DNA from: a virus
Virus record (IMG/VR): IMGVR_UViG_3300038393_001290
Location: 1 to 55,802 of that record
DNA: 55,802 nt
Direction: 5' to 3' (one strand)
Made by a program: the position numbers and the translations under genes. How positions within the stretch are numbered: position 1 is the stretch's first letter; each line of letters opens with the position of its first letter. Positions 2,139-55,802 of the stretch are shown piece by piece. The notes under the pieces are model-generated. The model was not told where the DNA came from. It ran no database searches and saw only the letters and a program-made list of their open reading frames with translations.

Positions 2139-4352
2139 ATGGCCCAAGCCACGCCGACCGCCCCCGATCCCGAACAAGCCGCCCGTGACGCGCTGAAGAA
2201 GGCGCAATGCGCCCGCCGCTGGATCGCCGAACTGAATCAGTCGGAGAAAGCGCAGGCCAAGTGGCTCACCCGCTCCCGCAAGATCGTCCGCCGCTACAAG
2301 GAAGAGCACCGCTCGGACGGCGATCAGCGGCGTTTCGCCATGCTGTGGTCGAACACGCAAACGCTGCAGCCAGCGATCTACTCCCGACCGCCGCAGCCTG
2401 TGGTGTCCCGCCGCTTCGCTGACTCCGACCCCATCGCTCGCGTCGCCTCCGAGGTGCTGGAACGGGCCCTGGCCTATTCCATCGACTGCCAAGGCTTCGA
2501 CGGCGTGATGCGTCAGTCGAGCTTCGATTACGTGCTGTTGGCCAGAGGCCAGACCTGGGAGCGCTACGTTCCCACCAAAGGCCCGATGGTCACTCCGGAG
2601 ATCGAGCTTCAGGTGAAGACCGAAGGCGACGGCTATCTGGACCCGGACGGCAACGACTACGAGGGCGAGACCGAGACCCGCGAGGACGGCTCAGTGGTCG
2701 GCTTCGGCGAGCCCTATGCCCCGATCACCTACGAGGAAAGCGTCACCGACTACGTCAACTGGGAGGACTTCGGCCACTCGGTTGCCAGAACCTGGGATGA
2801 GGTCGATTACGTCTGGCGCCGGGTCTACCTGAACAGGGCCCAGCTCAAGGAGCGGTTCGGCGACGAGCTCGGCGAGCGCATCCCGCTCGACTTCTCTCCG
2901 AAGGCCCAGCAGAAGCAGGGCGACACCTCCGACTTGACCAACAAGGCCGCTATCTACGAAATCTGGTGCAAGTCGGAGAAGAAGGTCTACTGGATCTCAA
3001 AGTCCTTCAACGAAGCGCCGCTCGATGAGCGCGACGACCCGCTTCAACTGGAAGGCTTCTTCCCCTGTCCCCGCCCGCTCCTGGGAACCACGGCGAACGA
3101 CAGCGTAATTCCTCTCCCCGATTTCGTGTTCTACCAGGACCAGGCCGAGGAGATCGACAAGCTCACGGCCCGCATCGCCCATCTGCAGGACGCGCTGAAG
3201 GTCCGCGGCTTCTACGCGGCCGACCAGAAGTCAAACCTCAACAACCTCCTGAATTCCGACAATAACATCCTCATTCCGGTCACGGACTGGCAGAGCTTGA
3301 AGGAGGACGGCGGAGTCCGGAACAAGATCGAGTGGTGGCCGATCGATCTGGTGGTGAACGCCCTCAACGCGCTCATCACCCAGCGCACGCAGCTCATCAA
3401 CGACGTCTATCAGATCACCGGCATTGCCGACATTCTGCGCGGTATGAACGACCCCCGCGCCACGGCGGCGGCGGAGCAGATCAAGACCGCCTGGGGCACG
3501 CTCCGCATCCGTGACCGCCAGGTGGAGGTGATGCGGTTTGCCCGGGATGTGATCCGCATCAAGGGCCAGGTGATCGCCAAGGAGTTCAACCCCGACACGC
3601 TGAAGGCGATGACGGGCGTTCAGCTTCCGACCAACTCCGACAAGGCGCAGGTCCAGGCTCAAATCCAGCAGCTTCAGCAGCAGGCCCAACTGGCTGGCCA
3701 ACAGGCGCAGCTAGCGTGGCAGGCTCAGGCCCAAGCCTCGCAGCAACAGGGCCAACCCCCGCCGCCCAAGCCGGCCCCGCCCGCACCGCCGCAAATCCCC
3801 GACGAGCTGCAAGCCGTTCTGCGTTCGCCATCCTGGGAAGACGTGACCGCCCTCCTGCGCAACAAGGTCGCCCGCCAGTTCCGCATCGACATCGAGACGG
3901 ACTCCACTATCGAGCCGAACCAGACGGAGGAGAAGCAGCAGGCCGTCGAGCTGATCGGCGCTGTGGGCCAGATGGTCATGCAGTGGGGCCCGGCGATCCA
4001 GGCTCAACCGGCTCTGGCCCCCATGGTCGGCGAGTTCATCAAGTGGGGCGTCAGACGGTTCCGAGCCGGGCGTCAGCTCGAGGACGTGATCGACAACACG
4101 GTGGACAAGATGACCGCGGCAGCGAGCCAGCCTCAAGCGCCGCAGGGACCGCAACAGCCGCCGGTGGATCAGACCAAGTTGGCGGTCGCCTCCATCGAGC
4201 AGCAGACCGAGCAGATGGCGCAACAGGCCGAAACCCAGCGCGTTCAGATGCAGCTCGGCGTCAAGCAGCAGGAGATCGCCCAGCGGGCCGAGGAGACCCA
4301 GGCCAAGATCTACGCGTTGCCGCGTGATCCGACGCCTCAGGTGGCGGTGTAG
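2139..4352 (+). CDS. Portal (head-to-tail connector) protein
   Basis: 737 aa following the terminase region. N-terminal KIVRRYKEE...FAMLWSNTQTLQPAIYSRPPQPVVSRRF is typical of podovirus connector proteins; C-terminus is Q/A/P-rich. Confidence 0.85.
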   Translation: MAQATPTAPDPEQAARDALKKAQCARRWIAELNQSEKAQAKWLTRSRKIVRRYKEEHRSDGDQRRFAMLWSNTQTLQPAIYSRPPQPVVSRRFADSDPIARVASEVLERALAYSIDCQGFDGVMRQSSFDYVLLARGQTWERYVPTKGPMVTPEIELQVKTEGDGYLDPDGNDYEGETETREDGSVVGFGEPYAPITYEESVTDYVNWEDFGHSVARTWDEVDYVWRRVYLNRAQLKERFGDELGERIPLDFSPKAQQKQGDTSDLTNKAAIYEIWCKSEKKVYWISKSFNEAPLDERDDPLQLEGFFPCPRPLLGTTANDSVIPLPDFVFYQDQAEEIDKLTARIAHLQDALKVRGFYAADQKSNLNNLLNSDNNILIPVTDWQSLKEDGGVRNKIEWWPIDLVVNALNALITQRTQLINDVYQITGIADILRGMNDPRATAAAEQIKTAWGTLRIRDRQVEVMRFARDVIRIKGQVIAKEFNPDTLKAMTGVQLPTNSDKAQVQAQIQQLQQQAQLAGQQAQLAWQAQAQASQQQGQPPPPKPAPPAPPQIPDELQAVLRSPSWEDVTALLRNKVARQFRIDIETDSTIEPNQTEEKQQAVELIGAVGQMVMQWGPAIQAQPALAPMVGEFIKWGVRRFRAGRQLEDVIDNTVDKMTAAASQPQAPQGPQQPPVDQTKLAVASIEQQTEQMAQQAETQRVQMQLGVKQQEIAQRAEETQAKIYALPRDPTPQVAV

Positions 4353-4387
4353 CGCCCGGCTGAGAACGGTCTAGCCGACCGCAAAAT
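4352..4387 (+). promoter_or_regulatory. Late promoter-like element, copy 2
   Basis: GCGCCCGG-CTGAGA-16 nt-CAAAAT, starting at the G of the portal TAG stop; leader with AAGGGA SD before GTG 4415. Confidence 0.6.
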
Positions 4388-4414
4388 GTCCCTCACGCAA
4401 CCAAGGGACACCCA

Positions 4415-4696
4415 GTGGCGAACATCACCGTTTTTGAATTCTTCGCGGCCCCGAATGCTATCGGCGACGTCATCTGGCCGGCGGACGTTGTGACTACGAC
4501 CACGACCGCATCCACCATCAACCTGAGCGCCAACACTCGAGCGTTCATCGTCACGGCGGACGCCGATTGTCGCGCCATCGTGAACGCAAGCGGGGTTAGC
4601 ACGGCGGCGGGCGTTTCGACCTTGCCCGTCCTCTCGGCGGCGCCCAACCAATTCACCATCGCCCCGGCGAGCGGCCAATCCCTCAAGTTCGCTTAA
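4415..4696 (+). CDS. Hypothetical S/T/A-rich 93-aa protein
   Basis: GTG start 6 nt after AAGGGA; VVTTTTTASTINLSANT and GVSTAAGVSTLPVLS tracts; no recognised domain. Confidence 0.55.
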   Translation: MANITVFEFFAAPNAIGDVIWPADVVTTTTTASTINLSANTRAFIVTADADCRAIVNASGVSTAAGVSTLPVLSAAPNQFTIAPASGQSLKFA

Positions 4697-4708: not shown

Positions 4709-6304
4709 ATGAGCAGATCCACAGACCGACGCCGGGCCGCGGCGGCCCTGGCGACTGGAAGCGCCGTGGCCGCTGCTGGCGTCATTCGCTCGCGGGACCG
4801 CCGCGCGCGGATGATAGCGGCGGCGGTGATGCCGATGTTTCCGCGCAGCGTCGTCTTCATGGGCGACAGCCGGATTCAAGACGGCACGCGCTACTGGAAG
4901 AATGCCTTGTCTTCCGACTGGAAGGGGCTTCCCATCGGCTCGGGGTTCTGCGGGCCTGCCATTACGGCCGACTTCACTGATGGGCTACTGGAATTCCGCG
5001 CCTCCGACAGGTCGCTACGTTGGACCGCGTCGGGCGACACGGCCGGGGGCTGGGCGCAGATCACCCAAGCTGGGTGGGCGCAGCTTGAAAGCGCCACCGC
5101 CAACAAGCACCTGCGCGTCGGCGTGAAGAACCTGACGGGCTTTCCGGTGTCGGACCAGAGCGTGACTGTGTCGGGCTCCAGCTCGATGAACTTCGGCTGG
5201 AACGCGGTTGGCATTTGCAATCGGGCCATGAACCTCTTGCGCTGGCTTTGCCCCAGCCCGGTGTCGCTCGGCATCGGTGGCAGCACGACAGCCGACGTTA
5301 TTGAGCAACTCGCCTACTGTCAGGCCCAGGCCTCCGGCCTTGGCTGGGACATCGTCATGGTGTCCACGAACGACGTGACCGCGAGCGTGGCCGCGGCAAC
5401 CGTCACGGCCAACCTGCAAGCGATCTACGACGCGCGCCGGGCGCTGGGGCGCAAGCTGGTCATTGTCGAGAACACCGCCCGTTGGGGGGTGAATACCTCC
5501 ACCCCGCTCACCGCCGGGCAGATCGCCATCTTCGACGCCGTGCGGGCCTTCAACCAGACCTACGCCGCCCAGCACGATTGCGTCTATGTGGACAGCTATC
5601 TGCTGACCTACGACAGCGGCTTTTCGGATCGGCGGCCAGCCGCGGGGATGCTCCGCGACACGGTTCATCCGACCGACAACGGCTGCCAGATCATCGCCGC
5701 AGAACTCGTCCGGCTGCTCAAGCGGCGCACAGGGCCGGGACGTTTCCGAACGAGCGCCGATAGCAACACCTTCGCCAACGGCCTCCTGAATGGGACCGGC
5801 GGTACGCTGGGAACGGGCGCCAGCGGTCAGGTCGCGACGGGGTGGACCGTGGGTCGAGCGACTGGCACGGATGGAACCGCGACGTGCTCGGTGATCGATC
5901 GAACGGACGGCGGCGCGGGCAAGATGCAGCGTATCCAGTGCGCCAACACGACCGCCGGCTGGATGGAATTCACCGCCACGGCTTCGGGTGTCACGTTGGC
6001 GGCGCTCGGCCTGGCGGTGGGCGATACGGTCTATTACGAGATCGAGTACGAGGTGACGAGCCCGGTCGCCTTGCAGAACATCGCCGCGCAGGCATTCTTC
6101 ACCGGCGCGAGCCCGACCACGGCGCTGACCTGCAACGTCGAGACCTCCAACGTCTTCCTGGCGGAGGCGGGGACGATGCGAACCCCGCCGGCCAAGATAC
6201 CGGCGGGGACCACAAACGTGCGGCCGACCAACTACCTGAAGTTCGGCGCCAACGGCTCGGCTGACGTGAAGTTCGGCGTTTGCCGCATCGTCAAGGCCGC
6301 TTAA
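4709..6304 (+). CDS. SGNH/GDSL hydrolase-fold protein with Tat-like signal and C-terminal beta-rich (CBM-like) domain
   Basis: Blocks VVFMGDSR (I), IGGSTTAD (II), VSTNDV (III), DTVHPTD (V); N-terminal DRRRAAAALATGSAVAAAG resembles a twin-arginine signal. Confidence 0.75.
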   Translation: MSRSTDRRRAAAALATGSAVAAAGVIRSRDRRARMIAAAVMPMFPRSVVFMGDSRIQDGTRYWKNALSSDWKGLPIGSGFCGPAITADFTDGLLEFRASDRSLRWTASGDTAGGWAQITQAGWAQLESATANKHLRVGVKNLTGFPVSDQSVTVSGSSSMNFGWNAVGICNRAMNLLRWLCPSPVSLGIGGSTTADVIEQLAYCQAQASGLGWDIVMVSTNDVTASVAAATVTANLQAIYDARRALGRKLVIVENTARWGVNTSTPLTAGQIAIFDAVRAFNQTYAAQHDCVYVDSYLLTYDSGFSDRRPAAGMLRDTVHPTDNGCQIIAAELVRLLKRRTGPGRFRTSADSNTFANGLLNGTGGTLGTGASGQVATGWTVGRATGTDGTATCSVIDRTDGGAGKMQRIQCANTTAGWMEFTATASGVTLAALGLAVGDTVYYEIEYEVTSPVALQNIAAQAFFTGASPTTALTCNVETSNVFLAEAGTMRTPPAKIPAGTTNVRPTNYLKFGANGSADVKFGVCRIVKAA

Positions 6305-11331: not shown

Positions 11332-12510
11332 ATGGATCTTCGCGAACAACTCAAGGCGGCGATGAGTGGGGAGGTGAACGCCCCCGAACCGAACGAGGCC
11401 ATCACTCCGGCCGAGGGCGCGGAAGCCGCCGCCCCGCCGGTCAGCGAGGCCCCGGAAAGCCAAACCGAGGCCAAAGCCCCGGAGACCGACACCAAGGCCC
11501 TGGAGCGCGACGAAAGCGGGCGCTTCAAGGCCAAAAACACCGAGGCCCAAGCTGGCGCGGAGACCGCGACGCCTGAGCCTCCGAAAGAACCCGAGTCCGC
11601 GAAGCCGGAGGAAAAGGGACCTCAAACCGAGGCGACCCGCATTCCCCCGTCTCTGCCCGCAGCCGTGAAAGCGCAATGGGCGGACCTCAAGCCGGAAGTC
11701 CAACAGGCCTTCTCCAAGCTCGAGGAAACCGTCCAGACCGCCAAGGCCGAGTGGGGCAAGAAAGGCGAGCGGCTCAACCGCTATGACGAGATCGTGGGTC
11801 CGCATCTGGACCGATGGCGCATGGCCGGCTTGGACGAGTTCGCAGGGGTTCAGACGCTTATTGCGGCGCAGAACATCCTCGAACGCAACCCGGTTGATGG
11901 CCTGGTCCACATCGCCCGATCCTATGGCGTTCACCCGCAGCAGCTGGCCCAGGCTTTCGGCCTGACGCAGGCGAACGGAGCCCAGCCGGGCGCGGAGGGC
12001 CAACCAGCCCCGACCGCCGCACCGGACCTGACGCCCGTCCTGCAACCCGTTCTGCAGCAGGTCCAGACCCTACAGCAGCAACTGCAACAGCTCCGCCAGG
12101 GCTCCGAGCACGAAAAGCTCACCCAGGCGCAGGCCGAAGTCACCGCGTTCGCCAACGATCCCGCCAACCTCTACTTCGAGAACGTCCGACCAGTCGTCGC
12201 GAAGCTACTGGAGACGGGGCAGGCAAGCACGCTGAAGGACGCCTACGAACAAGCGATCTGGGCCTCGCCCGAGATCCGCCCGCTCCTCCTCGCGGCTCAA
12301 ACCGCGGAAGCAGCGAGGGCGGCTCAGGCCGAGACCACCCGGAAAGCCCAGGAGCAAGAGCAGCGGGCCAAGGCGCAAGCCGCAGCCAAAGCCGCAGGGT
12401 CTGTCACCGGAGCCCCCGCACCCGGCGCCACCGCGCCAGGACCGGGCTCCACCGGCAACCTGCGCGAAGACCTCCTGGCGGCCAAACGGCTCTCTGAGTC
12501 CAGGGCGTAA
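11332..12510 (+). CDS. Scaffolding protein (putative)
   Basis: 392 aa, A/E/Q/P-rich and helical-looking, immediately upstream of the capsid gene. Confidence 0.6.
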   Translation: MDLREQLKAAMSGEVNAPEPNEAITPAEGAEAAAPPVSEAPESQTEAKAPETDTKALERDESGRFKAKNTEAQAGAETATPEPPKEPESAKPEEKGPQTEATRIPPSLPAAVKAQWADLKPEVQQAFSKLEETVQTAKAEWGKKGERLNRYDEIVGPHLDRWRMAGLDEFAGVQTLIAAQNILERNPVDGLVHIARSYGVHPQQLAQAFGLTQANGAQPGAEGQPAPTAAPDLTPVLQPVLQQVQTLQQQLQQLRQGSEHEKLTQAQAEVTAFANDPANLYFENVRPVVAKLLETGQASTLKDAYEQAIWASPEIRPLLLAAQTAEAARAAQAETTRKAQEQEQRAKAQAAAKAAGSVTGAPAPGATAPGPGSTGNLREDLLAAKRLSESRA

Positions 12511-12557: not shown

Positions 12558-13366
12558 ATGGCCTCTCCCGGCCTTTCCGAAATCGTCACGACCACGCTGC
12601 GCAACCGTAGCGGCGTGATCGCTGACAACATGAGCAAGAACAACGCGCTGTTGTTCCGGCTCAACAAGCGTGGTCGCGTCAAACCGCTTTCGGGCGGTCG
12701 GACGATCGTGCGCGAGCTGAGCTACGCCGAGAACTCGACGTTCCAGCGTTACTCGGGCTACGAGATCCTGAACACTTCGCCCAGCGACGTGATCAGCGCG
12801 GCCGAGTTCAACTGGAAGCAAGCTTCCGTCGCCGTCACCATGTCGGGTCTGGAGCAATACCAGAACTCCGGCGAAGACGCTCTGCTGGACCTCCTCGAAG
12901 CCCGCATCGACGTGGCCGAGAAGACCATGCAGAACAACCTGTCGTCCGACATGTACTCGGACGGCACGGCGTCGAGCGGCAAGCAGATCGGCGGCCTTCA
13001 GCTCCTCGTGGCTGACGACCCGACGACCGGCACTGTCGGCGGCATCAACCGGGCCACCTACACCTTCTGGCGCAACCAGAAGTACCAGGCGACCTCGGAT
13101 GGCGGCTCGGCGGCTTCTGCGACCAACATCCAGAAGTACATGAACGCGCTGTATCAGAAGTGCACGCGTCAGACCGACCGTCCGGACCTGATCGTCGCGG
13201 ATACGAACTACTACAACTTCTACCTGAACAGCCTGCAAGCTATCCAGCGGATCACCTCCGACGAGATGGCTCAGGCCGGCTTCCAGTCGCTCAAGTACAT
13301 GGGCGCGGATGTGGTGTTCGACGGCGGGGTGGGCGGCGCTTGCCCGTCCAACCACCTCTACATGCT
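12558..13366 (+). CDS. Major capsid protein, exon 1 (codons 1-269 plus 2 nt)
   Basis: Position after the scaffold gene. The uninterrupted ORF runs 10 more codons into the insert and stops (…HLYMLKDSANHTVH*); joining to 14132 restores a 323-aa ORF. Confidence 0.75.
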
Positions 13367-14131
13367 TAAGGACTCTGCGAACCACACGGTTCACTGAGTC
13401 AGGGCCAGCTAAGGACTAGAGAGAGAACCGCACGTGTTTCAGCTCAGTGATACGACGAGCAAGGTCTTCGCGGTAAGCGAAGATTTCGTCGCGCTGCGGG
13501 TGGACCGCGTGATGGCAACCGAGCTTGTGCTTCCATTCGTCAATGGATCTCTGGAGTTCCAGCGCAAGTTCGGCCTCATCTCGTTTGACGACCAAGTACG
13601 GAACAACGCGACGAAGGAAAGCGGCGGCCTTCTGGCTGGCGCAGTACCAGAGGAATTGGTCGCGGTGCTTCGGATTGCGCCGGCTGTGCGGGTTGACATT
13701 GAGCGACCCGCCGTAGGTGTTGTGCAGGCTCCGGATAACGGGCGCGTGCGACATGCCGATGGCGAGAAGGATTTGGTAGCGCGTGTGGATGCTGTTGGGC
13801 TTGGCCCACTTGCTGACGCGCACCCAGCCCTCTCCATCGAACAGGCCGGCGGCGTAGCGGTCGTCAAGCGTGATGGTCACTCTCTGAGCCTTAGGCTGAA
13901 TGCTGGTGAATTCGGTGGAAGCCCCATGCCCGGCTCGAAAGAGCGCGGAAGGGTAACGCCGAGCCAAGCAGGCGACCGTGACGGGTCGCCGGGCGTGTGT
14001 AACGAGCAGGGACCAGCCCCGAAAGGGAAGGCGTGCTCTGAACTCCGTAGGAATACGGAGAGGTCGGCAGAAATGACCGGCCCGGCGCAGCAAGTATCAT
14101 TCGATGATTCTACTGCGCAGGTAACAGATTG
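13367..14131 (+). mobile_element. Intervening sequence in the capsid gene; group I intron-like, with an antisense homing-endonuclease gene
   Basis: Exon ends in U and the insert ends in G. There are multiple perfect hairpins (13371-13400, 13932-13965, 13971-13990, 14043-14060 with a GGAA loop, 14085-14118). Stem 13409-13423/13880-13894 encloses the endonuclease ORF. Confidence 0.6.
13416..13880 (-). CDS. LAGLIDADG homing endonuclease (single-motif, 154 aa, GTG start)
   Basis: YAAGLFDGEGWVRVSKW... LAGLIDADG motif near the N-terminus; size and PYLVVKRDEAELALEL region fit I-CreI-type enzymes; AAGG precedes GTG 13880. Confidence 0.8.
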   Translation of the reverse strand: MTITLDDRYAAGLFDGEGWVRVSKWAKPNSIHTRYQILLAIGMSHAPVIRSLHNTYGGSLNVNPHSRRNPKHRDQFLWYCASQKAAAFLRRVVPYLVVKRDEAELALELQRSIDEWKHKLGCHHAVHPQRDEIFAYREDLARRITELKHVRFSL

Positions 14132-14294
14132 CAACACCGACTACATCTTCTGGCAGCCCCATCGGGACCGCAACATGGTCCCGCTGGATCGGGTCAACTC
14201 GATCAACCAGGACGCCTTGGTCCAGCTCATCATCTGGATGGGCAACATGACCGTCAGCAACGCTCAGCTGCAGGGCGTCCTCTTCCAGACCTAA
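14132..14294 (+). CDS. Major capsid protein, exon 2 (last 54 codons)
   Basis: (L)NTDYIFWQPHRDRNMVPLDRVNSINQDALVQLIIWMGNMTVSNAQLQGVLFQT has no start codon or SD of its own and is in frame with exon 1 after removal of 765 nt. Confidence 0.7.
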
Positions 14295-15388: not shown

Positions 15389-15585
15389 GCCGCTACGTCC
15401 TGAGGCACGCGGAGAGCCGCCGCTACCTGCACGCAAGCACACAGCGGCGCAAACCCCTCCTCACGGAGGAGTTGGAGGAGGCCAAGGTCTTTCAGGCCAC
15501 TCGCCCCTATGTCTCGGGGCTGGGGAGGGGGCTTGACGGCTTCGAATGGGTGGCCGTGCGGCTGGTGCTTGGCGAGGCGGTCTGA
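15385..15585 (+). CDS. Hypothetical 66-aa protein (GTG start)
   Basis: Translationally coupled at both ends. Confidence 0.5.
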   Translation: MSRYVLRHAESRRYLHASTQRRKPLLTEELEEAKVFQATRPYVSGLGRGLDGFEWVAVRLVLGEAV

Positions 15586-17153
15586 TGGGCGGCTCCATCC
15601 ACCCCGCCGCCGCTCAGGCCCTCGCCGCAGCCGTGGCCCCCCGCCGCCGGGTCAACTTCGTCATGGTCTGGACGGGCACCAAGTACGGCCCGGAATATCC
15701 GGCGATCCTTCAGAATATGATCGCCCGCAATGCCTCCAATCTGGAGGAGGATTGCGCGTGGTGGGCCATCACCGACCGGCCGGACGAGCTGCCGGCGGGT
15801 GTCTATCCCATCGAGGCCGATCCGACGCTTCCGACGTGGTGGCAGAAGGTGCGGCTGTTCTCGCCAGACATGCCGTGGGACCGCGGCGACCGCTGTGTCT
15901 ACTTCGACCTCGACGTGGCGATCACCGGCCGCCTGGAAGACCTCATCGAGCGCAAGGGGATCATTCAGGACTGGCACTGGCCCATGCGGAACAGCTCCGT
16001 GATGGTCTGGGACCACGGCGAGCATGTCCGGATCTGGACCGACTTCGCGCACGACCTGATCGACCGTCCCGCGCCGGACGACATCAAGCCGCTTCTGCCG
16101 AAGGGCGAGGTCAACGCCGGGGATCAGCATTGGATTTCGGAGTGCGCGCCCGACTGGCCGGCGTTCCCCGCCGACTGGTTCCGCTCCTATCGCGACTGTC
16201 ACGCTTGGCCGCCGAACGAGTGCAAGGCGGTCATATTCCACGGCGCGGTCAAGCCGGATCAGGTGACGGACGGCTGGGTTCCGAATGTCTGGAAGGTCGG
16301 CGGCTTCACGTCCCTCCCCGAGTTCAAGGGCGTCAACACCTCCGAAGACGCCCGGCTCGAAAACGTCCGCATCAACTCCGCCCGCGACCTCGATTGGTTC
16401 ACCGGCTTCAAGGACGAAGGCCGAACCTGCGTCATCGCCTGCGGCGCACCTTCGATGAAGGACTACGTTCAGCAGCTCAAGCGCCACCGGGCCAAGGGCG
16501 ATCGCATCGTCTCCGTGAACAACGCCTGGCGCTTCCTGCATCAGCGCGGGATCACGCCCGACGTCAACGTGATGCTGGATGCCCGGCCGGAGAACGCCGC
16601 GTTCCTCGACGGCGCGCCGAAGTCCATGCGGCTGATGCTCGCCAGCCAGTGCCATCCGAGCGTGTTCGACAAGGCGCTCGAGCAGGGGCTTGAGGTCGTG
16701 GTTTGGCACAATGGCTGGGATACCGGGAACGACAAGCTGCGGGAAATCCTCGACCCGTGGTGGGATGGGCCGAACCAGAGGCCGTGCATCCTCGTGCCTG
16801 GCGGCTCGACGGTGGGCCTGCGGTCCCTGTGGCTGGCGACCTATAGCGGCTTCCGGACGATCCACCTCTACGGATGTGATTCCAGCTACGCCGACGACGG
16901 CACACACCACGCCTACGCCCAGCCGCTGAACGACCACGAAACTGTCCTTGACGTGGTGATGGGAGCGAAGCGCTACCGCTGCGCGCCGTGGATGGTCAGG
17001 CAGGCGTCGGAATTTCAGCAGAGCTGGAAAGACCTCCGCGAGTACGAGGAGGAGCCCGGCAAAACTGCGCCGGTCACGCTGCACGTCCACGGCCGCGGGC
17101 TCGTGCCCGACGTCGCCAAGCAGCTTCGGGCCGAGGAAAGGGGCGTGGCGTGA
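15585..17153 (+). CDS. Fusion protein: GT-A/DxD glycosyltransferase-like N-domain + MptE-like (DUF115, Maf-type) C-domain
   Basis: WWQKVRLFSPD and VYFDLDVAITG (DxD) in the N-terminal half. CVIACGAPSMKD...VNNAW...DARPEN...HLYGCDSSY in the C-terminal half resembles motility-accessory-factor glycosyltransferases. Confidence 0.6.
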   Translation: MGGSIHPAAAQALAAAVAPRRRVNFVMVWTGTKYGPEYPAILQNMIARNASNLEEDCAWWAITDRPDELPAGVYPIEADPTLPTWWQKVRLFSPDMPWDRGDRCVYFDLDVAITGRLEDLIERKGIIQDWHWPMRNSSVMVWDHGEHVRIWTDFAHDLIDRPAPDDIKPLLPKGEVNAGDQHWISECAPDWPAFPADWFRSYRDCHAWPPNECKAVIFHGAVKPDQVTDGWVPNVWKVGGFTSLPEFKGVNTSEDARLENVRINSARDLDWFTGFKDEGRTCVIACGAPSMKDYVQQLKRHRAKGDRIVSVNNAWRFLHQRGITPDVNVMLDARPENAAFLDGAPKSMRLMLASQCHPSVFDKALEQGLEVVVWHNGWDTGNDKLREILDPWWDGPNQRPCILVPGGSTVGLRSLWLATYSGFRTIHLYGCDSSYADDGTHHAYAQPLNDHETVLDVVMGAKRYRCAPWMVRQASEFQQSWKDLREYEEEPGKTAPVTLHVHGRGLVPDVAKQLRAEERGVA

Positions 17154-35629: not shown

Positions 35630-35831
35630 CCCTTTACACAGACCCCGCTAAGTCATTGATTTTTCGTGGGCGTCCTGGCCGTCGCTTTACATCCAGGTCG
35701 TTGATTTTGCATCAGAACTACCCGTTTACAAAACCGCTGCTCTACCAGCTGAGCTAATCCGGCGCGTTGATTTTACTAGCGTTTTCACACACCGCCGTTA
35801 GGCGCTTTACACTTTGATGAGGCCCTTTACA
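35630..35831. other. Candidate attP region
   Basis: Adjacent to int. Contains five (C/G)TTTACA copies (35632, 35685, 35724, 35805, 35825), three TTGATTTT copies (35656, 35701, 35767) and a tRNA-like 5' half. Confidence 0.6.
35724..35763 (-). tRNA. 5' half of a tRNA-Thr(UGU)-like sequence (positions 1-40 only; not a functional gene)
   Basis: GCCGGAT-TA-GCTC-AGCTGGTA-GAGC-A-GCGGT-TTTGTAA-AC gives acceptor, D-arm and anticodon stem/loop. The 3' anticodon-stem strand and the T-arm are absent. Confidence 0.55.
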
Positions 35832-36915
35832 AAACGGCCCCTGATTTGTTCTTCCCTAGCCGCTTCAGCATCCCCGCCGCAACCGCTTCTGCGGTGACGT
35901 AGCGGGCGGCGATGGCGTCGACGCGCTGCGGCGTCCAGCCCATGATCCGGGCGACGTCCGCCAAGGGAAGATGCCGCGCGAAATGGGTCGCGGCGGTGCC
36001 TCTGAGGTCATGGAACCGGAGGCCCTTAATCCCGCGATCGACCTTTGCCCGCTGCATGGCGGTCTGAAGCCCCCAGCCTGTCCACGGCTTGCCGCCGGAG
36101 TGGGTCAGGACCGCGCCCACGTCCTTGCGACCAATCTGCTTCAGGATGGCGCGGGTCTTTGGCGTGATCGGGATGACCACCACGCGCTTACCCTTGCTCT
36201 TCGCCGTGGCGAGCGTGATGGCGTCCTGGCCCACGTCGGCCCAGCTCAGGCGCACAAGATCCCCCAGGCGCAGGCCGGTGAAGGCGGCTAGCAGCACGGC
36301 CCGGCGGAACTCCGGCTTGACCCCCTTGAGCAGCTTGATCAGATCCGGCTTCGTCCAGATGGCCTCTGCGCGATTGACGCTGTAGAGGCGCGGCCACTTC
36401 TCCAGAGGATTGGTGGCCAGGTCGCCGCGCTTCTTCGCCCAGCTCAGCACCAAGGCGAGGGCGCCCAAGTAGGCGTCGGCGGTCTTCGGGGTGCTCTTGT
36501 AGCGGTCGCGCCAGTCCAGCAGGGCTTTCCGGGCGCCATCCGATTTCAATGCCTCGAGGGCCATCACGCCGATGTCGTTGCGCACGACGGATAGGTGTCG
36601 CTTCAGGTCGGCGCGTGTGCGGGGCGCCAGCTTCTTGAACTCGGCGCTCTCCTCGTATTTGACGCATAAGCCCGAAAGGAACTCGTCGGCTCGCTGCGGA
36701 GCAACCGCCTTCCGGTAAGCCGCTGCGGCCTCGCTGAAGCGCTCCTGAGCCAGCCGTTCAAGATCGGCGTCGGAGCGGCCCCTCAGCGTCAGGATGCGGG
36801 GACCGCCGCGCCAGGCGTACCAGTACTCCGCCGGGCCGCCGGCGAGCTTCACGCGGACCTTATGGACGCCGGGCAGCATCTTGCGTGTCGGCAAGGAATT
36901 GGGCGAGCGCGGCAT
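35827..36915 (-). CDS. int: Tyrosine integrase
   Basis: MPRSPNSLPTRK...GGPAEYWYAWRGGPR N-terminus; catalytic region FHDLRGTAATH...ARY; ATG 36879 is an alternative start. Confidence 0.85.
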   Translation of the reverse strand: MPRSPNSLPTRKMLPGVHKVRVKLAGGPAEYWYAWRGGPRILTLRGRSDADLERLAQERFSEAAAAYRKAVAPQRADEFLSGLCVKYEESAEFKKLAPRTRADLKRHLSVVRNDIGVMALEALKSDGARKALLDWRDRYKSTPKTADAYLGALALVLSWAKKRGDLATNPLEKWPRLYSVNRAEAIWTKPDLIKLLKGVKPEFRRAVLLAAFTGLRLGDLVRLSWADVGQDAITLATAKSKGKRVVVIPITPKTRAILKQIGRKDVGAVLTHSGGKPWTGWGLQTAMQRAKVDRGIKGLRFHDLRGTAATHFARHLPLADVARIMGWTPQRVDAIAARYVTAEAVAAGMLKRLGKNKSGAVL

Positions 36916-37111
36916 CAGGCCCCGAGAGGTTGGAGTTCGCCACTGTAAGCTTTGCGCCGCGCAAACCGTCAAGGTAGTCGTCCAGGGCCTTGCGGTCCCA
37001 CCTGACCCGCCCATCGAGCACGACGCGGCCAGCCTGGACCCGCTTCATCGCCGCGAGCGGCAATGACAGGTAGGCGGCGGCGGCGCGCTCGGTGAGCAGG
37101 CGGGGCGTCAT
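36860..37111 (-). CDS. xis: Excisionase / AlpA-type HTH protein
   Basis: LLTERAAAAYLSLPLAAMKR...RVRWDRKALDDYLD; immediately upstream of and overlapping int. Confidence 0.65.
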   Translation of the reverse strand: MTPRLLTERAAAAYLSLPLAAMKRVQAGRVVLDGRVRWDRKALDDYLDGLRGAKLTVANSNLSGPDAALAQFLADTQDAARRP

Positions 37112-55347: not shown

Positions 55348-55802
55348 GCTTCTCCCGCTTCTAGAGGAGCGGGCTCGGCGACAGCGCAGGAAGGCGGCGC
55401 GGGACAGCCTGCGCGCCTACTGTTCCCTTATCGAAATACCTGGCGCTCCGATCGGAGAGGAAGCCGACGACGCCTTGGACGGCGTTTATGCGCCCGTCGA
55501 AACGCCGCTAGCGGCCCACCACGAGCTGCTGATCTCAAAGCTGCAGGACGTCGCTGACGGCAAGATTCGCCGCCTGATGATCTTCATGCCGCCCGGCTCG
55601 GCGAAGTCCACCTACGCCAGCGTCGTCTTTCCGTCGTGGATCATGGGCCGTCGCAAGCGGCTCAACGTCGGCGTCGCCACATACGCCACAGACCTAGCCC
55701 GCAAGATGGGGCGCAAGGTGCGCTCGATTGTCCGTCAGCCCATCTATCGCGAGGTGTTCGGCACTGGGCTTGCGGCAGATCAGGCCGCAGCGAACGAATG
55801 GG
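55268..55802 (+). CDS. terL: Terminase large subunit, N-terminal part (runs off the window end; continues at position 128)
   Basis: Open frame from 55124; ATG 55268 or TTG 55310 as start; Walker A MIFMPPGSAKST. The joined product is 568 aa if it starts at 55268. Confidence 0.85.
   Translation, partial: MAVRSNIPTCRTKSLNVASLSSAAKRELLPLLEERARRQRRKAARDSLRAYCSLIEIPGAPIGEEADDALDGVYAPVETPLAAHHELLISKLQDVADGKIRRLMIFMPPGSAKSTYASVVFPSWIMGRRKRLNVGVATYATDLARKMGRKVRSIVRQPIYREVFGTGLAADQAAANEW
55676..55802. repeat. Terminal direct repeat identical to 1-127
   Basis: Exact 127-nt identity with the window start. Confidence 0.95.

Follow-up and report, generated by a model that had tools for sequence, protein, structure and literature searches.

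How does a phage make its major capsid protein when the gene is broken by 765 nucleotides (nt) that hold a stop codon in the capsid frame and a second gene on the opposite strand? The question is raised by IMG/VR record IMGVR_UViG_3300038393_001290, of which the whole stretch analysed here (positions 1 to 55,802, 55,802 nt) is called the window, and by the insert at 13367-14131 within its capsid gene. An initial annotation, made from the letters alone, had described this split and the antisense endonuclease gene inside it, leaving the intron class unsettled. From a comparison with related phages, we read the insert as a mobile group I intron that interrupts the capsid gene of a temperate phage of podovirus type and carries its endonuclease gene in antisense orientation, a reading to which we give a probability of about 0.88.

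The capsid gene and its proposed splice junction

The open reading frame (ORF) that begins the capsid gene (12558-13397, plus strand; 279 amino acids (aa)) ends ...HLYMLKDSANHTVH / ...GGACPSNHLYMLKDSANHTVH at a premature stop of the capsid frame, and this fragment is all that the source annotation records of the capsid protein (P0039). A second plus-strand ORF, 13434-14294, shares in its last 54 codons the frame of the first. Joining 12558-13366 to 14132-14294, with the 765 nt of 13367-14131 deleted, yields a single ORF of 323 aa, which matches phrog_9953 'major head protein' over residues 2-321 (E 1.6e-121) and NCBIfam NF033394 capsid_maj_Podo over residues 6-322 (E 1.3e-103). It has 7760 uninterrupted homologues at E <= 1e-20, the nearest of which are likewise 323 aa long and matched end to end, the top one being from Phenylobacterium soli (P0001; 90% identity). 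These homologues are continuous across the junction, which bears out both the proposed split of the capsid gene and the assignment of the last 54 codons to the capsid C-terminus. Those codons (exon 2) are the only coding part of 13434-14294; the long stretch of it that crosses the intron is no gene and simply mirrors the endonuclease reading frame in G+C-rich DNA (about 60-70% G+C near the capsid gene).

Alignment with uninterrupted capsid genes, already suggested as a means of locating the insertion, places it at aa 270/271. Two intron-less alleles, those of Bradyrhizobium phage ppBjS10J-1 (L001) and of a P. soli contig (L050), are unbroken exactly at the junction and read ...M-Y-M/F-L-N-T-D/S-Y... 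across it, so that one and the same site is found with and without the intron; the P. soli DNA at this point reads ...AACCACATGTACATGCTGAACACGTCC.... Moving both junctions by +1 to +3 nt leaves the protein identical, and only the junction 13366/14132 gives both a U before the cut (base 13366 is T) and a G as the terminal intron base (14131), the two features to which the initial annotation had pointed. Exon 1 (12558..13366, plus strand) accordingly comprises codons 1-269 and bases one and two of Leu270, with U13366 as its last base; the intron (13367..14131, plus strand, 765 nt) ends in G14131; and exon 2 (14132..14294, plus strand) supplies the third base of Leu270, 53 more codons and the stop at 14292-14294. 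Taken together with the RNA structure described below, these comparisons indicate that the major capsid gene is interrupted by a group I intron of 765 nt.

Guide helix and ribozyme core

Group I introns are expected to pair the end of the upstream exon with an internal guide, and the helix in question, P1, had been thought unconvincing at about 3 base pairs (bp). In the window, P1 (13364..13405, plus strand) consists of G13364-C13405, C13365-G13404, the cleavage-site wobble U13366·G13403 and U13367·G13402, that is, exon positions -3 to -1 and intron position +1 set against a 4-nt guide (GGGC, 13402-13405) that always lies 3 nt upstream of P2. With 5' splice sites set by protein homology, we examined this pairing in a hand-built alignment of 22 sequences anchored 3 nt upstream of P2. 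In it 98.8% of the cells pair, three of the four pairs are compensatory, and none of 500 shuffles was as good. All 20 distinct relatives keep the cleavage-site U·G, and its neighbours vary: position -2 pairs as C-G, A-U or G-C, position -3 as C-G or G-C, and position +1 as U·G, U-A, A-U or C-G. Exon end and guide read CCU / GGG at most loci, CAU / GUG in L006, L034 and L044 (relatives are cited by our L numbers), CGU / GCG in L020 and L033, and GCU / GGC in the window. Where the 3' junction of relatives could be placed by capsid homology (sites aa 270/271 and 62/63), the intron likewise ends in G. On this comparative evidence P1 is short (4 bp) but real. Because P1 and the exon sequence covary from one insertion site to another, and in keeping with the covariation of the core, we take the intron to belong to group I, which revises the earlier view on both P1 and intron class.

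An alternative P1, pairing GCUUAAGG (13364-71) with CCUUAGGC (13889-96) and leaving all in L1, was rejected, since 13889-94 covaries with 13409-14 as P2; it is also contradicted by the guide, GGGN, whose distance of 3 nt from the downstream P2 is the same in every relative.

P1 is extended by a hairpin (13371-75 / 13396-13400, plus strand; GACTC/GAGTC enclosing GAACC-ACAC-GGTTC), and the in-frame TGA at 13395-13397 sits inside it, ten codons into the insert and upstream of the catalytic core. This stop rules out an intein, as had been argued at the outset. By direct reading, a stop in the exon-1 frame is kept in the P1-loop hairpin of every relative inspected (L002, L003, L005, L006, L016, L022, L024, L032, L037, L043, L044, L020, L028, L030, L033, L040); the sequence is 'CAC/CAT TGA' at site 270/271 (TAG in L032) and 'GCT/GCG TAA' at site 62/63, which gives short, conserved read-through tails, for example ...ESVTVH. 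Group I introns in protein genes are recognised to have an in-frame stop soon after the 5' splice site, which in the published view keeps ribosomes off the ribozyme, and the hairpin stop found here agrees with that view (PMC3984707).

P2 is the 15-nt stem that had been recognised in the initial annotation as holding the start and stop codons of the endonuclease gene. Its strands (13409..13423 and 13880..13894, plus strand) form an outer helix (13409-14 with 13889-94), a 2x2 internal loop and an inner helix (13417-23 with 13880-86), with 13 of 15 positions paired; the 5' strand holds the complement of the endonuclease stop codon, the 3' strand that of the start codon and ribosome-binding site. 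Across 17 introns with an antisense gene, P2 arms gave a mean of -5.46 kcal/mol with their own partner and -2.35 kcal/mol with swapped partners, and the own partner ranked first in 11 of the 17 (permutation p <= 2e-4). Scored one sequence at a time, the duplexes gave weak z values (0 to -3), and only the partner-swap comparison was informative. As P2 covaries and its arms cover both start and stop, the whole endonuclease gene, with its ribosome-binding site and stop codon, lies within the P2 loop.

The 3' 240 nt of the intron form P3-P9, including the P3/P7 pseudoknot with its long-range P3, and the 238-nt core at the 3' end folds at -102.1 kcal/mol (z = -3.65 against shuffles). In the model (all on the plus strand), P3 (13902-07 / 14012-17) is followed by P4 (13912-17 / 13957-62), P5 (13921-24 / 13951-54), P5a (13930-32 / 13946-48) and P5b (13933-36 / 13941-44, with a GAAA loop). 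Next come P6 (13963-64 / 13997-98), P6a (13968-69 / 13993-94) and P6b (13971-77 / 13984-90, GGCGACC/GGTCGCC). P7 (14004-08 / 14034-38) encloses the 3' strand of P3 and P8 (14018-20 / 14025-27, GAAA loop); P9 (14043-49 / 14054-60, CTCCGTA/TACGGAG, GGAA loop), P9a (14062-67 / 14077-82) and the variable P9b (14085-90 / 14113-18, GCGCAG/CTGCGC) precede the terminal G14131. Four of the five perfect hairpins first described in the insert are thus retained, as the P1 extension, P6b, P9 and P9b; the fifth, GGCTCG/CGAGCC, was discarded, showing no covariation and having its bases in P5b and P4.

The P3-P9a part of this model, derived by hand, was tested on an alignment of 23 related introns (A2). Standard pairs fill 97.3% of 1194 cells, compared with 82.4% after column shuffles and 31-41% with slid partners, and compensatory changes occur in 30 of the 53 modelled pairs (P3 5/6, P9 6/7, P9a 6/6, P5 3/4); none of 500 shuffles reached any of five measures. 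At one P6 pair, G13963·U13998, six relatives have A·C instead. The window copy pairs at all 53 modelled positions and keeps every family-invariant column. Judged by these changes, the group I fold is under purifying selection. A group II intron was considered and rejected: Rfam group II models gave no match, the non-coding part amounts to only ~300 nt, and the fold that covariation supports is that of group I.

The P9a loop, CAGAAAUGA (14071-14079, 9 nt), is near-invariant in the family and recurs in the intron of mycobacteriophage LittleE. It may make a tertiary contact.

The endonuclease gene and the intron family

The P2 loop carries, antisense to the capsid gene, a single-motif LAGLIDADG homing endonuclease gene (13416..13880, minus strand; GTG start, 465 nt, 154 aa), which is called in the source data as P0121 and is full length (13880->13416), its start codon (13880-78) and stop codon (13418-16) both falling within the P2 stem. 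Alone, the protein matches I-MsoI with E 5.9e-6 and I-CreI weakly. A profile of 27 of its about 60 homologues (146-221 aa) matches single-chain I-MsoI (2e-14), native I-MsoI (1.9e-6), and I-CreI and I-CvuI (~2e-4), with nearly full-length coverage for I-MsoI. In the motif YAAGLFDGEG, Y9, A11, G12, L13, F14, D15, G16 and G18 are invariant among the 27, and E17 is present in >= 90%; seven of them match Pfam LAGLIDADG_1 weakly (best E 6.1e-5). By homology, then, the single-motif LAGLIDADG enzyme described in the initial annotation is a homodimer-type endonuclease of the I-MsoI/I-CreI type, and the label 'HNH endonuclease' that the family bears in PHROGs is a misnomer.

As to its expression, AAGG stands 8 nt before the GTG in the window, and direct reading finds canonical ribosome-binding sites ahead of the endonuclease ATG in relatives. 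A candidate sigma-70-like promoter lies on the minus strand (14107..14134; TTGCAA at 14134-29, 16 nt, TAGAAT at 14112-07), its first hexamer spanning the 3' splice junction. On the endonuclease strand two promoter-like sites were found where 0.3 were expected, and similar sites recur, with partial conservation, in several antisense-gene relatives; across the family, promoter scores are suggestive but do not discriminate (7-9 for antisense-gene introns, 6-8 for sense or ORF-less ones). That the site at 14134-14107 is the endonuclease promoter is put forward as a hypothesis only.

If it were, the antisense orientation itself might be functional, with endonuclease expression and capsid splicing mutually antagonistic. 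The endonuclease transcript would in that case carry, as its 5' untranslated region, the entire complement of the ribozyme core, and the antagonism would act through antisense pairing or convergent transcription. Such an arrangement, which we consider unlikely, would provide a timing switch, with homing early and capsid production late, and would bar ribosomes from the P2 loop in the late transcript that is expressed most strongly.

The intron is not confined to the window. At the loci of three endonuclease homologues (L002, L003/L004, L005), an antisense endonuclease gene again lies within a capsid gene split at residue 270/271, the capsid genes being 44-81% identical to that of the window. 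Further copies were retrieved from viral, metagenome and genome collections by a DNA pattern drawn from the strongly conserved, non-coding 3' part (CCAAGCAGG...GTAACGAGCA...GTGCTCTG), which brought the total for the same ribozyme to 28 distinct sequences, from metagenomic phage contigs. Site aa 270/271 is occupied in the window and about 15 others, site aa 62/63 in L020, L028, L030, L033, L039 and L040, site aa 192 in L047 and a site at about aa 275 in L019; L025, L034, L038 and L045 apparently carry the intron in other genes. One ribozyme is found at four or more sites of homologous capsid genes, and its retargeting with matching guide changes would make the family a natural system for the study of group I intron relocation.

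The endonuclease gene is antisense at most loci, sense in L010, L039 and L047 (28-34% identity) and absent from L037/L046, L019 and L029 (L036 being a partial copy only). The ORF-less copies show that the ribozyme is conserved without an endonuclease gene. In L010/L035, L039 and L047, the more distant LAGLIDADG gene stands on the sense strand between the 5' splice site and P3, which suggests independent invasions or an inversion; these introns also lack the long P9b hairpin with its conserved UGUA...UACA. In and near its capsid gene, the viral contig L019 has the ribozyme core three to four times, each time without an ORF (11437-11580, 12598-12739, 12857-12905, 13492-13622); one copy lies at a site ~5 codons downstream of the window's insertion site. 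The capsid gene of L003 has a second insert at about aa 40-64 (4148-4492 and 4860-4941, minus strand), which matches Rfam Intron_gpI (22.7 bits, E 0.0024) and not the core model of the window family, so that two different group I introns share one capsid gene. Within the window itself, nhmmer with the family model found only the one copy.

Searching GenBank phages by blastn with the ribozyme core gave no match. As the family also escapes the curated threshold of Rfam, current annotation under-counts such introns; gene callers show two or three 'hypothetical proteins' at these capsid loci. In the window phage and many uncultured relatives, an essential and very highly expressed structural gene would depend on RNA splicing. 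Its many naturally varying copies of a compact ribozyme, with sense, antisense and ORF-less states of one loop and several sites per gene, make the family useful material for studies of intron mobility and of intron-host coordination.

The phage itself is represented completely: the first and last 127 bases of the contig are identical (1-127, 55676-55802), and it is a circularly closed genome of about 55.7 kilobases (kb). Its genes include a terminase large subunit (spanning the circle junction), portal protein, capsid, amidase and integrase. The last, a tyrosine-integrase-like gene (35827-37014, minus strand; phrog_1, E 1.3e-39), indicates that the phage is probably temperate. A tRNA scan of the window found none. 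A few genes downstream of the capsid gene lie glycosyltransferase or MptE-like and methyltransferase genes (15546-17153 in the window; also in L002, L005 and L050); LittleE has glycosyltransferases directly after its capsid gene, a resemblance to the window phage group that may be coincidence.

Mechanism, alternatives and known systems

From exon structure, fold and gene content we infer splicing, homing and transcription of the endonuclease gene as follows. The late capsid transcript would fold into P1-P9, and P1 would offer U13366·G13403 to attack by free guanosine; G14131 would next take the guanosine site in P7, and the exons would be ligated to ...AUGCU/CAACACC... (DNA ...CUACAUGCU/CAACACCGAC...), restoring Leu270-Asn271 and the 323-aa capsid, with HLYMLNTDYIFWQPHR as the predicted junction peptide. 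Ribosomes on unspliced RNA would halt at TGA 13395-97, ahead of the catalytic core. On the opposite strand, the endonuclease gene has a ribosome-binding site, and probably a promoter, of its own. The enzyme would presumably cleave the capsid alleles of co-infecting relatives that lack the intron, at the conserved Y-M/F-L-N-T site (TACATGCTSAACAC), and repair of the cut allele would copy the intron in.

Several observations weigh against this account. P1 is no longer than 4 bp, and the alignment behind it is a manual one; P7 is constant throughout the set, in part because the retrieval pattern fixed both of its strands, so that covariation is uninformative there, and the invariance of the part of P6 that the pattern likewise fixed is equally uninformative. 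The window endonuclease gives no Pfam LAGLIDADG_1 match of its own, and the case for the window phage is built on DNA sequence. The Rfam search proposed in the initial annotation had a divided outcome: neither group I nor group II models matched the window, RF00028 giving no match to the whole at the gathering threshold or to two sub-ranges at E <= 10, whereas Intron_gpI gives a full-length alignment with L046, an ORF-less relative whose intron occupies the same position in the capsid gene, at 24.4 bits (E 3.3e-4), a score below the curated cut-off of 50 bits. The alignment of L046 places P4, P6, P7, P3', P8 and P9 as in our manual model. The Rfam model responds only once the ORF is absent. 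We regard RF00028 as insensitive to this lineage, because the intron of LittleE, which splices, also scores only 23 bits.

The best surviving rival differs from our reading only in the help that splicing would need, from a host factor or from the LAGLIDADG protein acting as a maturase. The very short P1 speaks for it, as does the maturase-like character of some LAGLIDADG proteins of bacterial introns, for example that of the Thermotoga 23S intron (PMC3984707). Against it, ORF-less members at the same site (L037/L046) retain the whole ribozyme, and an antisense gene is not produced from the pre-mRNA. Azoarcus-type introns with a 3-bp P1 splice unaided, which also counts against a helper, and we hold dependence on one to be distinctly unlikely.

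We think it very unlikely that the insert is a former group I intron that no longer splices, leaving a capsid pseudogene in a defective prophage or dead-end genome. The Rfam model does not recognise the window copy, which such a history would accommodate. Yet the full pairing of that copy and its intact invariant columns, the two exons open and in frame, the full-length endonuclease ORF and the closed 55.7-kb genome with its exact 127-bp end overlap are hard to square with decay; and the arrangement recurs with compensatory changes in about 20 other phage contigs, which points to selection on the RNA.

Scarcely credible is that the endonuclease gene split the capsid gene into parts that are translated separately (279 aa and about 54-74 aa) and assemble unspliced, as in some T4-like fissions. 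In the window and in L002 the P9a loop does hold an ATG (14073) that shares the exon-2 frame and has GGAGAGG some 11 nt ahead of it, but direct reading finds that its frame meets a stop in L005 and that the ATG is out of frame in L003. The AUG belongs to the conserved loop that is present in LittleE too, separate translation would leave about 300 nt of non-coding, group I-covarying RNA unexplained, and ORF-less copies still interrupt the capsid gene.

The mobile group I intron that we favour can be set beside several known systems. The homodimeric enzymes I-MsoI, I-CreI and I-CvuI come from 23S rRNA introns of algal chloroplasts, where their genes occupy the sense strand. The window enzyme resembles them in its size class (about 150-170 aa), its one LAGLIDADG motif and a nearly full-length profile match; it differs by low identity and by a motif that ends GEG, not GDG.

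The introns of T4 td, nrdB and nrdD (sunY) belong to subgroup IA2. Unlike the present intron, they encode GIY-YIG or HNH endonucleases on the sense strand and reside in genes of nucleotide metabolism rather than a structural gene. With other phage group I introns they are self-splicing introns of phage protein genes, the type proposed here, and they likewise have an endonuclease gene in a peripheral loop and an early in-frame stop (PMC3984707). A 2014 review of bacterial group I introns gives GIY-YIG, HNH, PD-(D/E)xK and EDxHD as the usual endonucleases of phage introns, and antisense endonuclease genes go unmentioned in it (PMC3984707). Documented examples of such genes come from group I introns of nuclear rDNA (e.g. 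position L2066), where one intron family may likewise carry its endonuclease gene, sense or antisense, in a peripheral loop; those introns differ in being eukaryotic, in rRNA genes and equipped with His-Cys box enzymes whose mRNAs are processed with spliceosomal introns (PMC9548176).

Azoarcus and cyanobacterial pre-tRNA introns (IC3) have the same compact core without a large P5abc and a P1 of 3-4 bp, and near-identical J3/4-P4 and P4'-P6 segments (AAUUCGG...GGYAAYNCCGAGCCAAGC). A match of 16 bits over P3-P6 between the family hidden Markov model and an Azoarcus sequence is taken as a lead towards IC3, not as a test of it. The window intron differs in residing in a phage protein gene, in its P1 and P9 extensions, in the endonuclease gene in P2 and in another P7.

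The closest parallel is mycobacteriophage LittleE, whose capsid gene (gene 13) has an intron with a LAGLIDADG ORF on the bottom strand (gene 14) and splices in vivo, as found by reverse-transcription PCR (Pope et al. 2013, PMC3706429); an antisense LAGLIDADG gene in a phage capsid intron, an arrangement that the initial annotation called unusual, is thus not without parallel. In both phages a group I-type intron lies in the major capsid gene, exon 1 ends in U, the intron ends in G, and a LAGLIDADG ORF occupies the opposite strand. The core of the LittleE locus (L049) scores no better against Rfam Intron_gpI (23 bits) than the window family, with which it shares a P9/P9a module including the conserved loop (nhmmer E 2e-5). 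The differences are considerable: LittleE is a siphovirus of an actinobacterial host with an unrelated capsid family, its endonuclease gene lies downstream of P9a whereas that of the window lies in P2, the two endonucleases have the motif alone in common, and P7 is of the standard form AGACUA/UAGUC in LittleE and GAGCA/UGCUC in the window family. Splicing is experimentally demonstrated in LittleE; in the window phage it is deduced from sequence. The antisense arrangement is uncommon and has its precedent in LittleE; what is new here is a sizeable, hitherto unannotated intron family.

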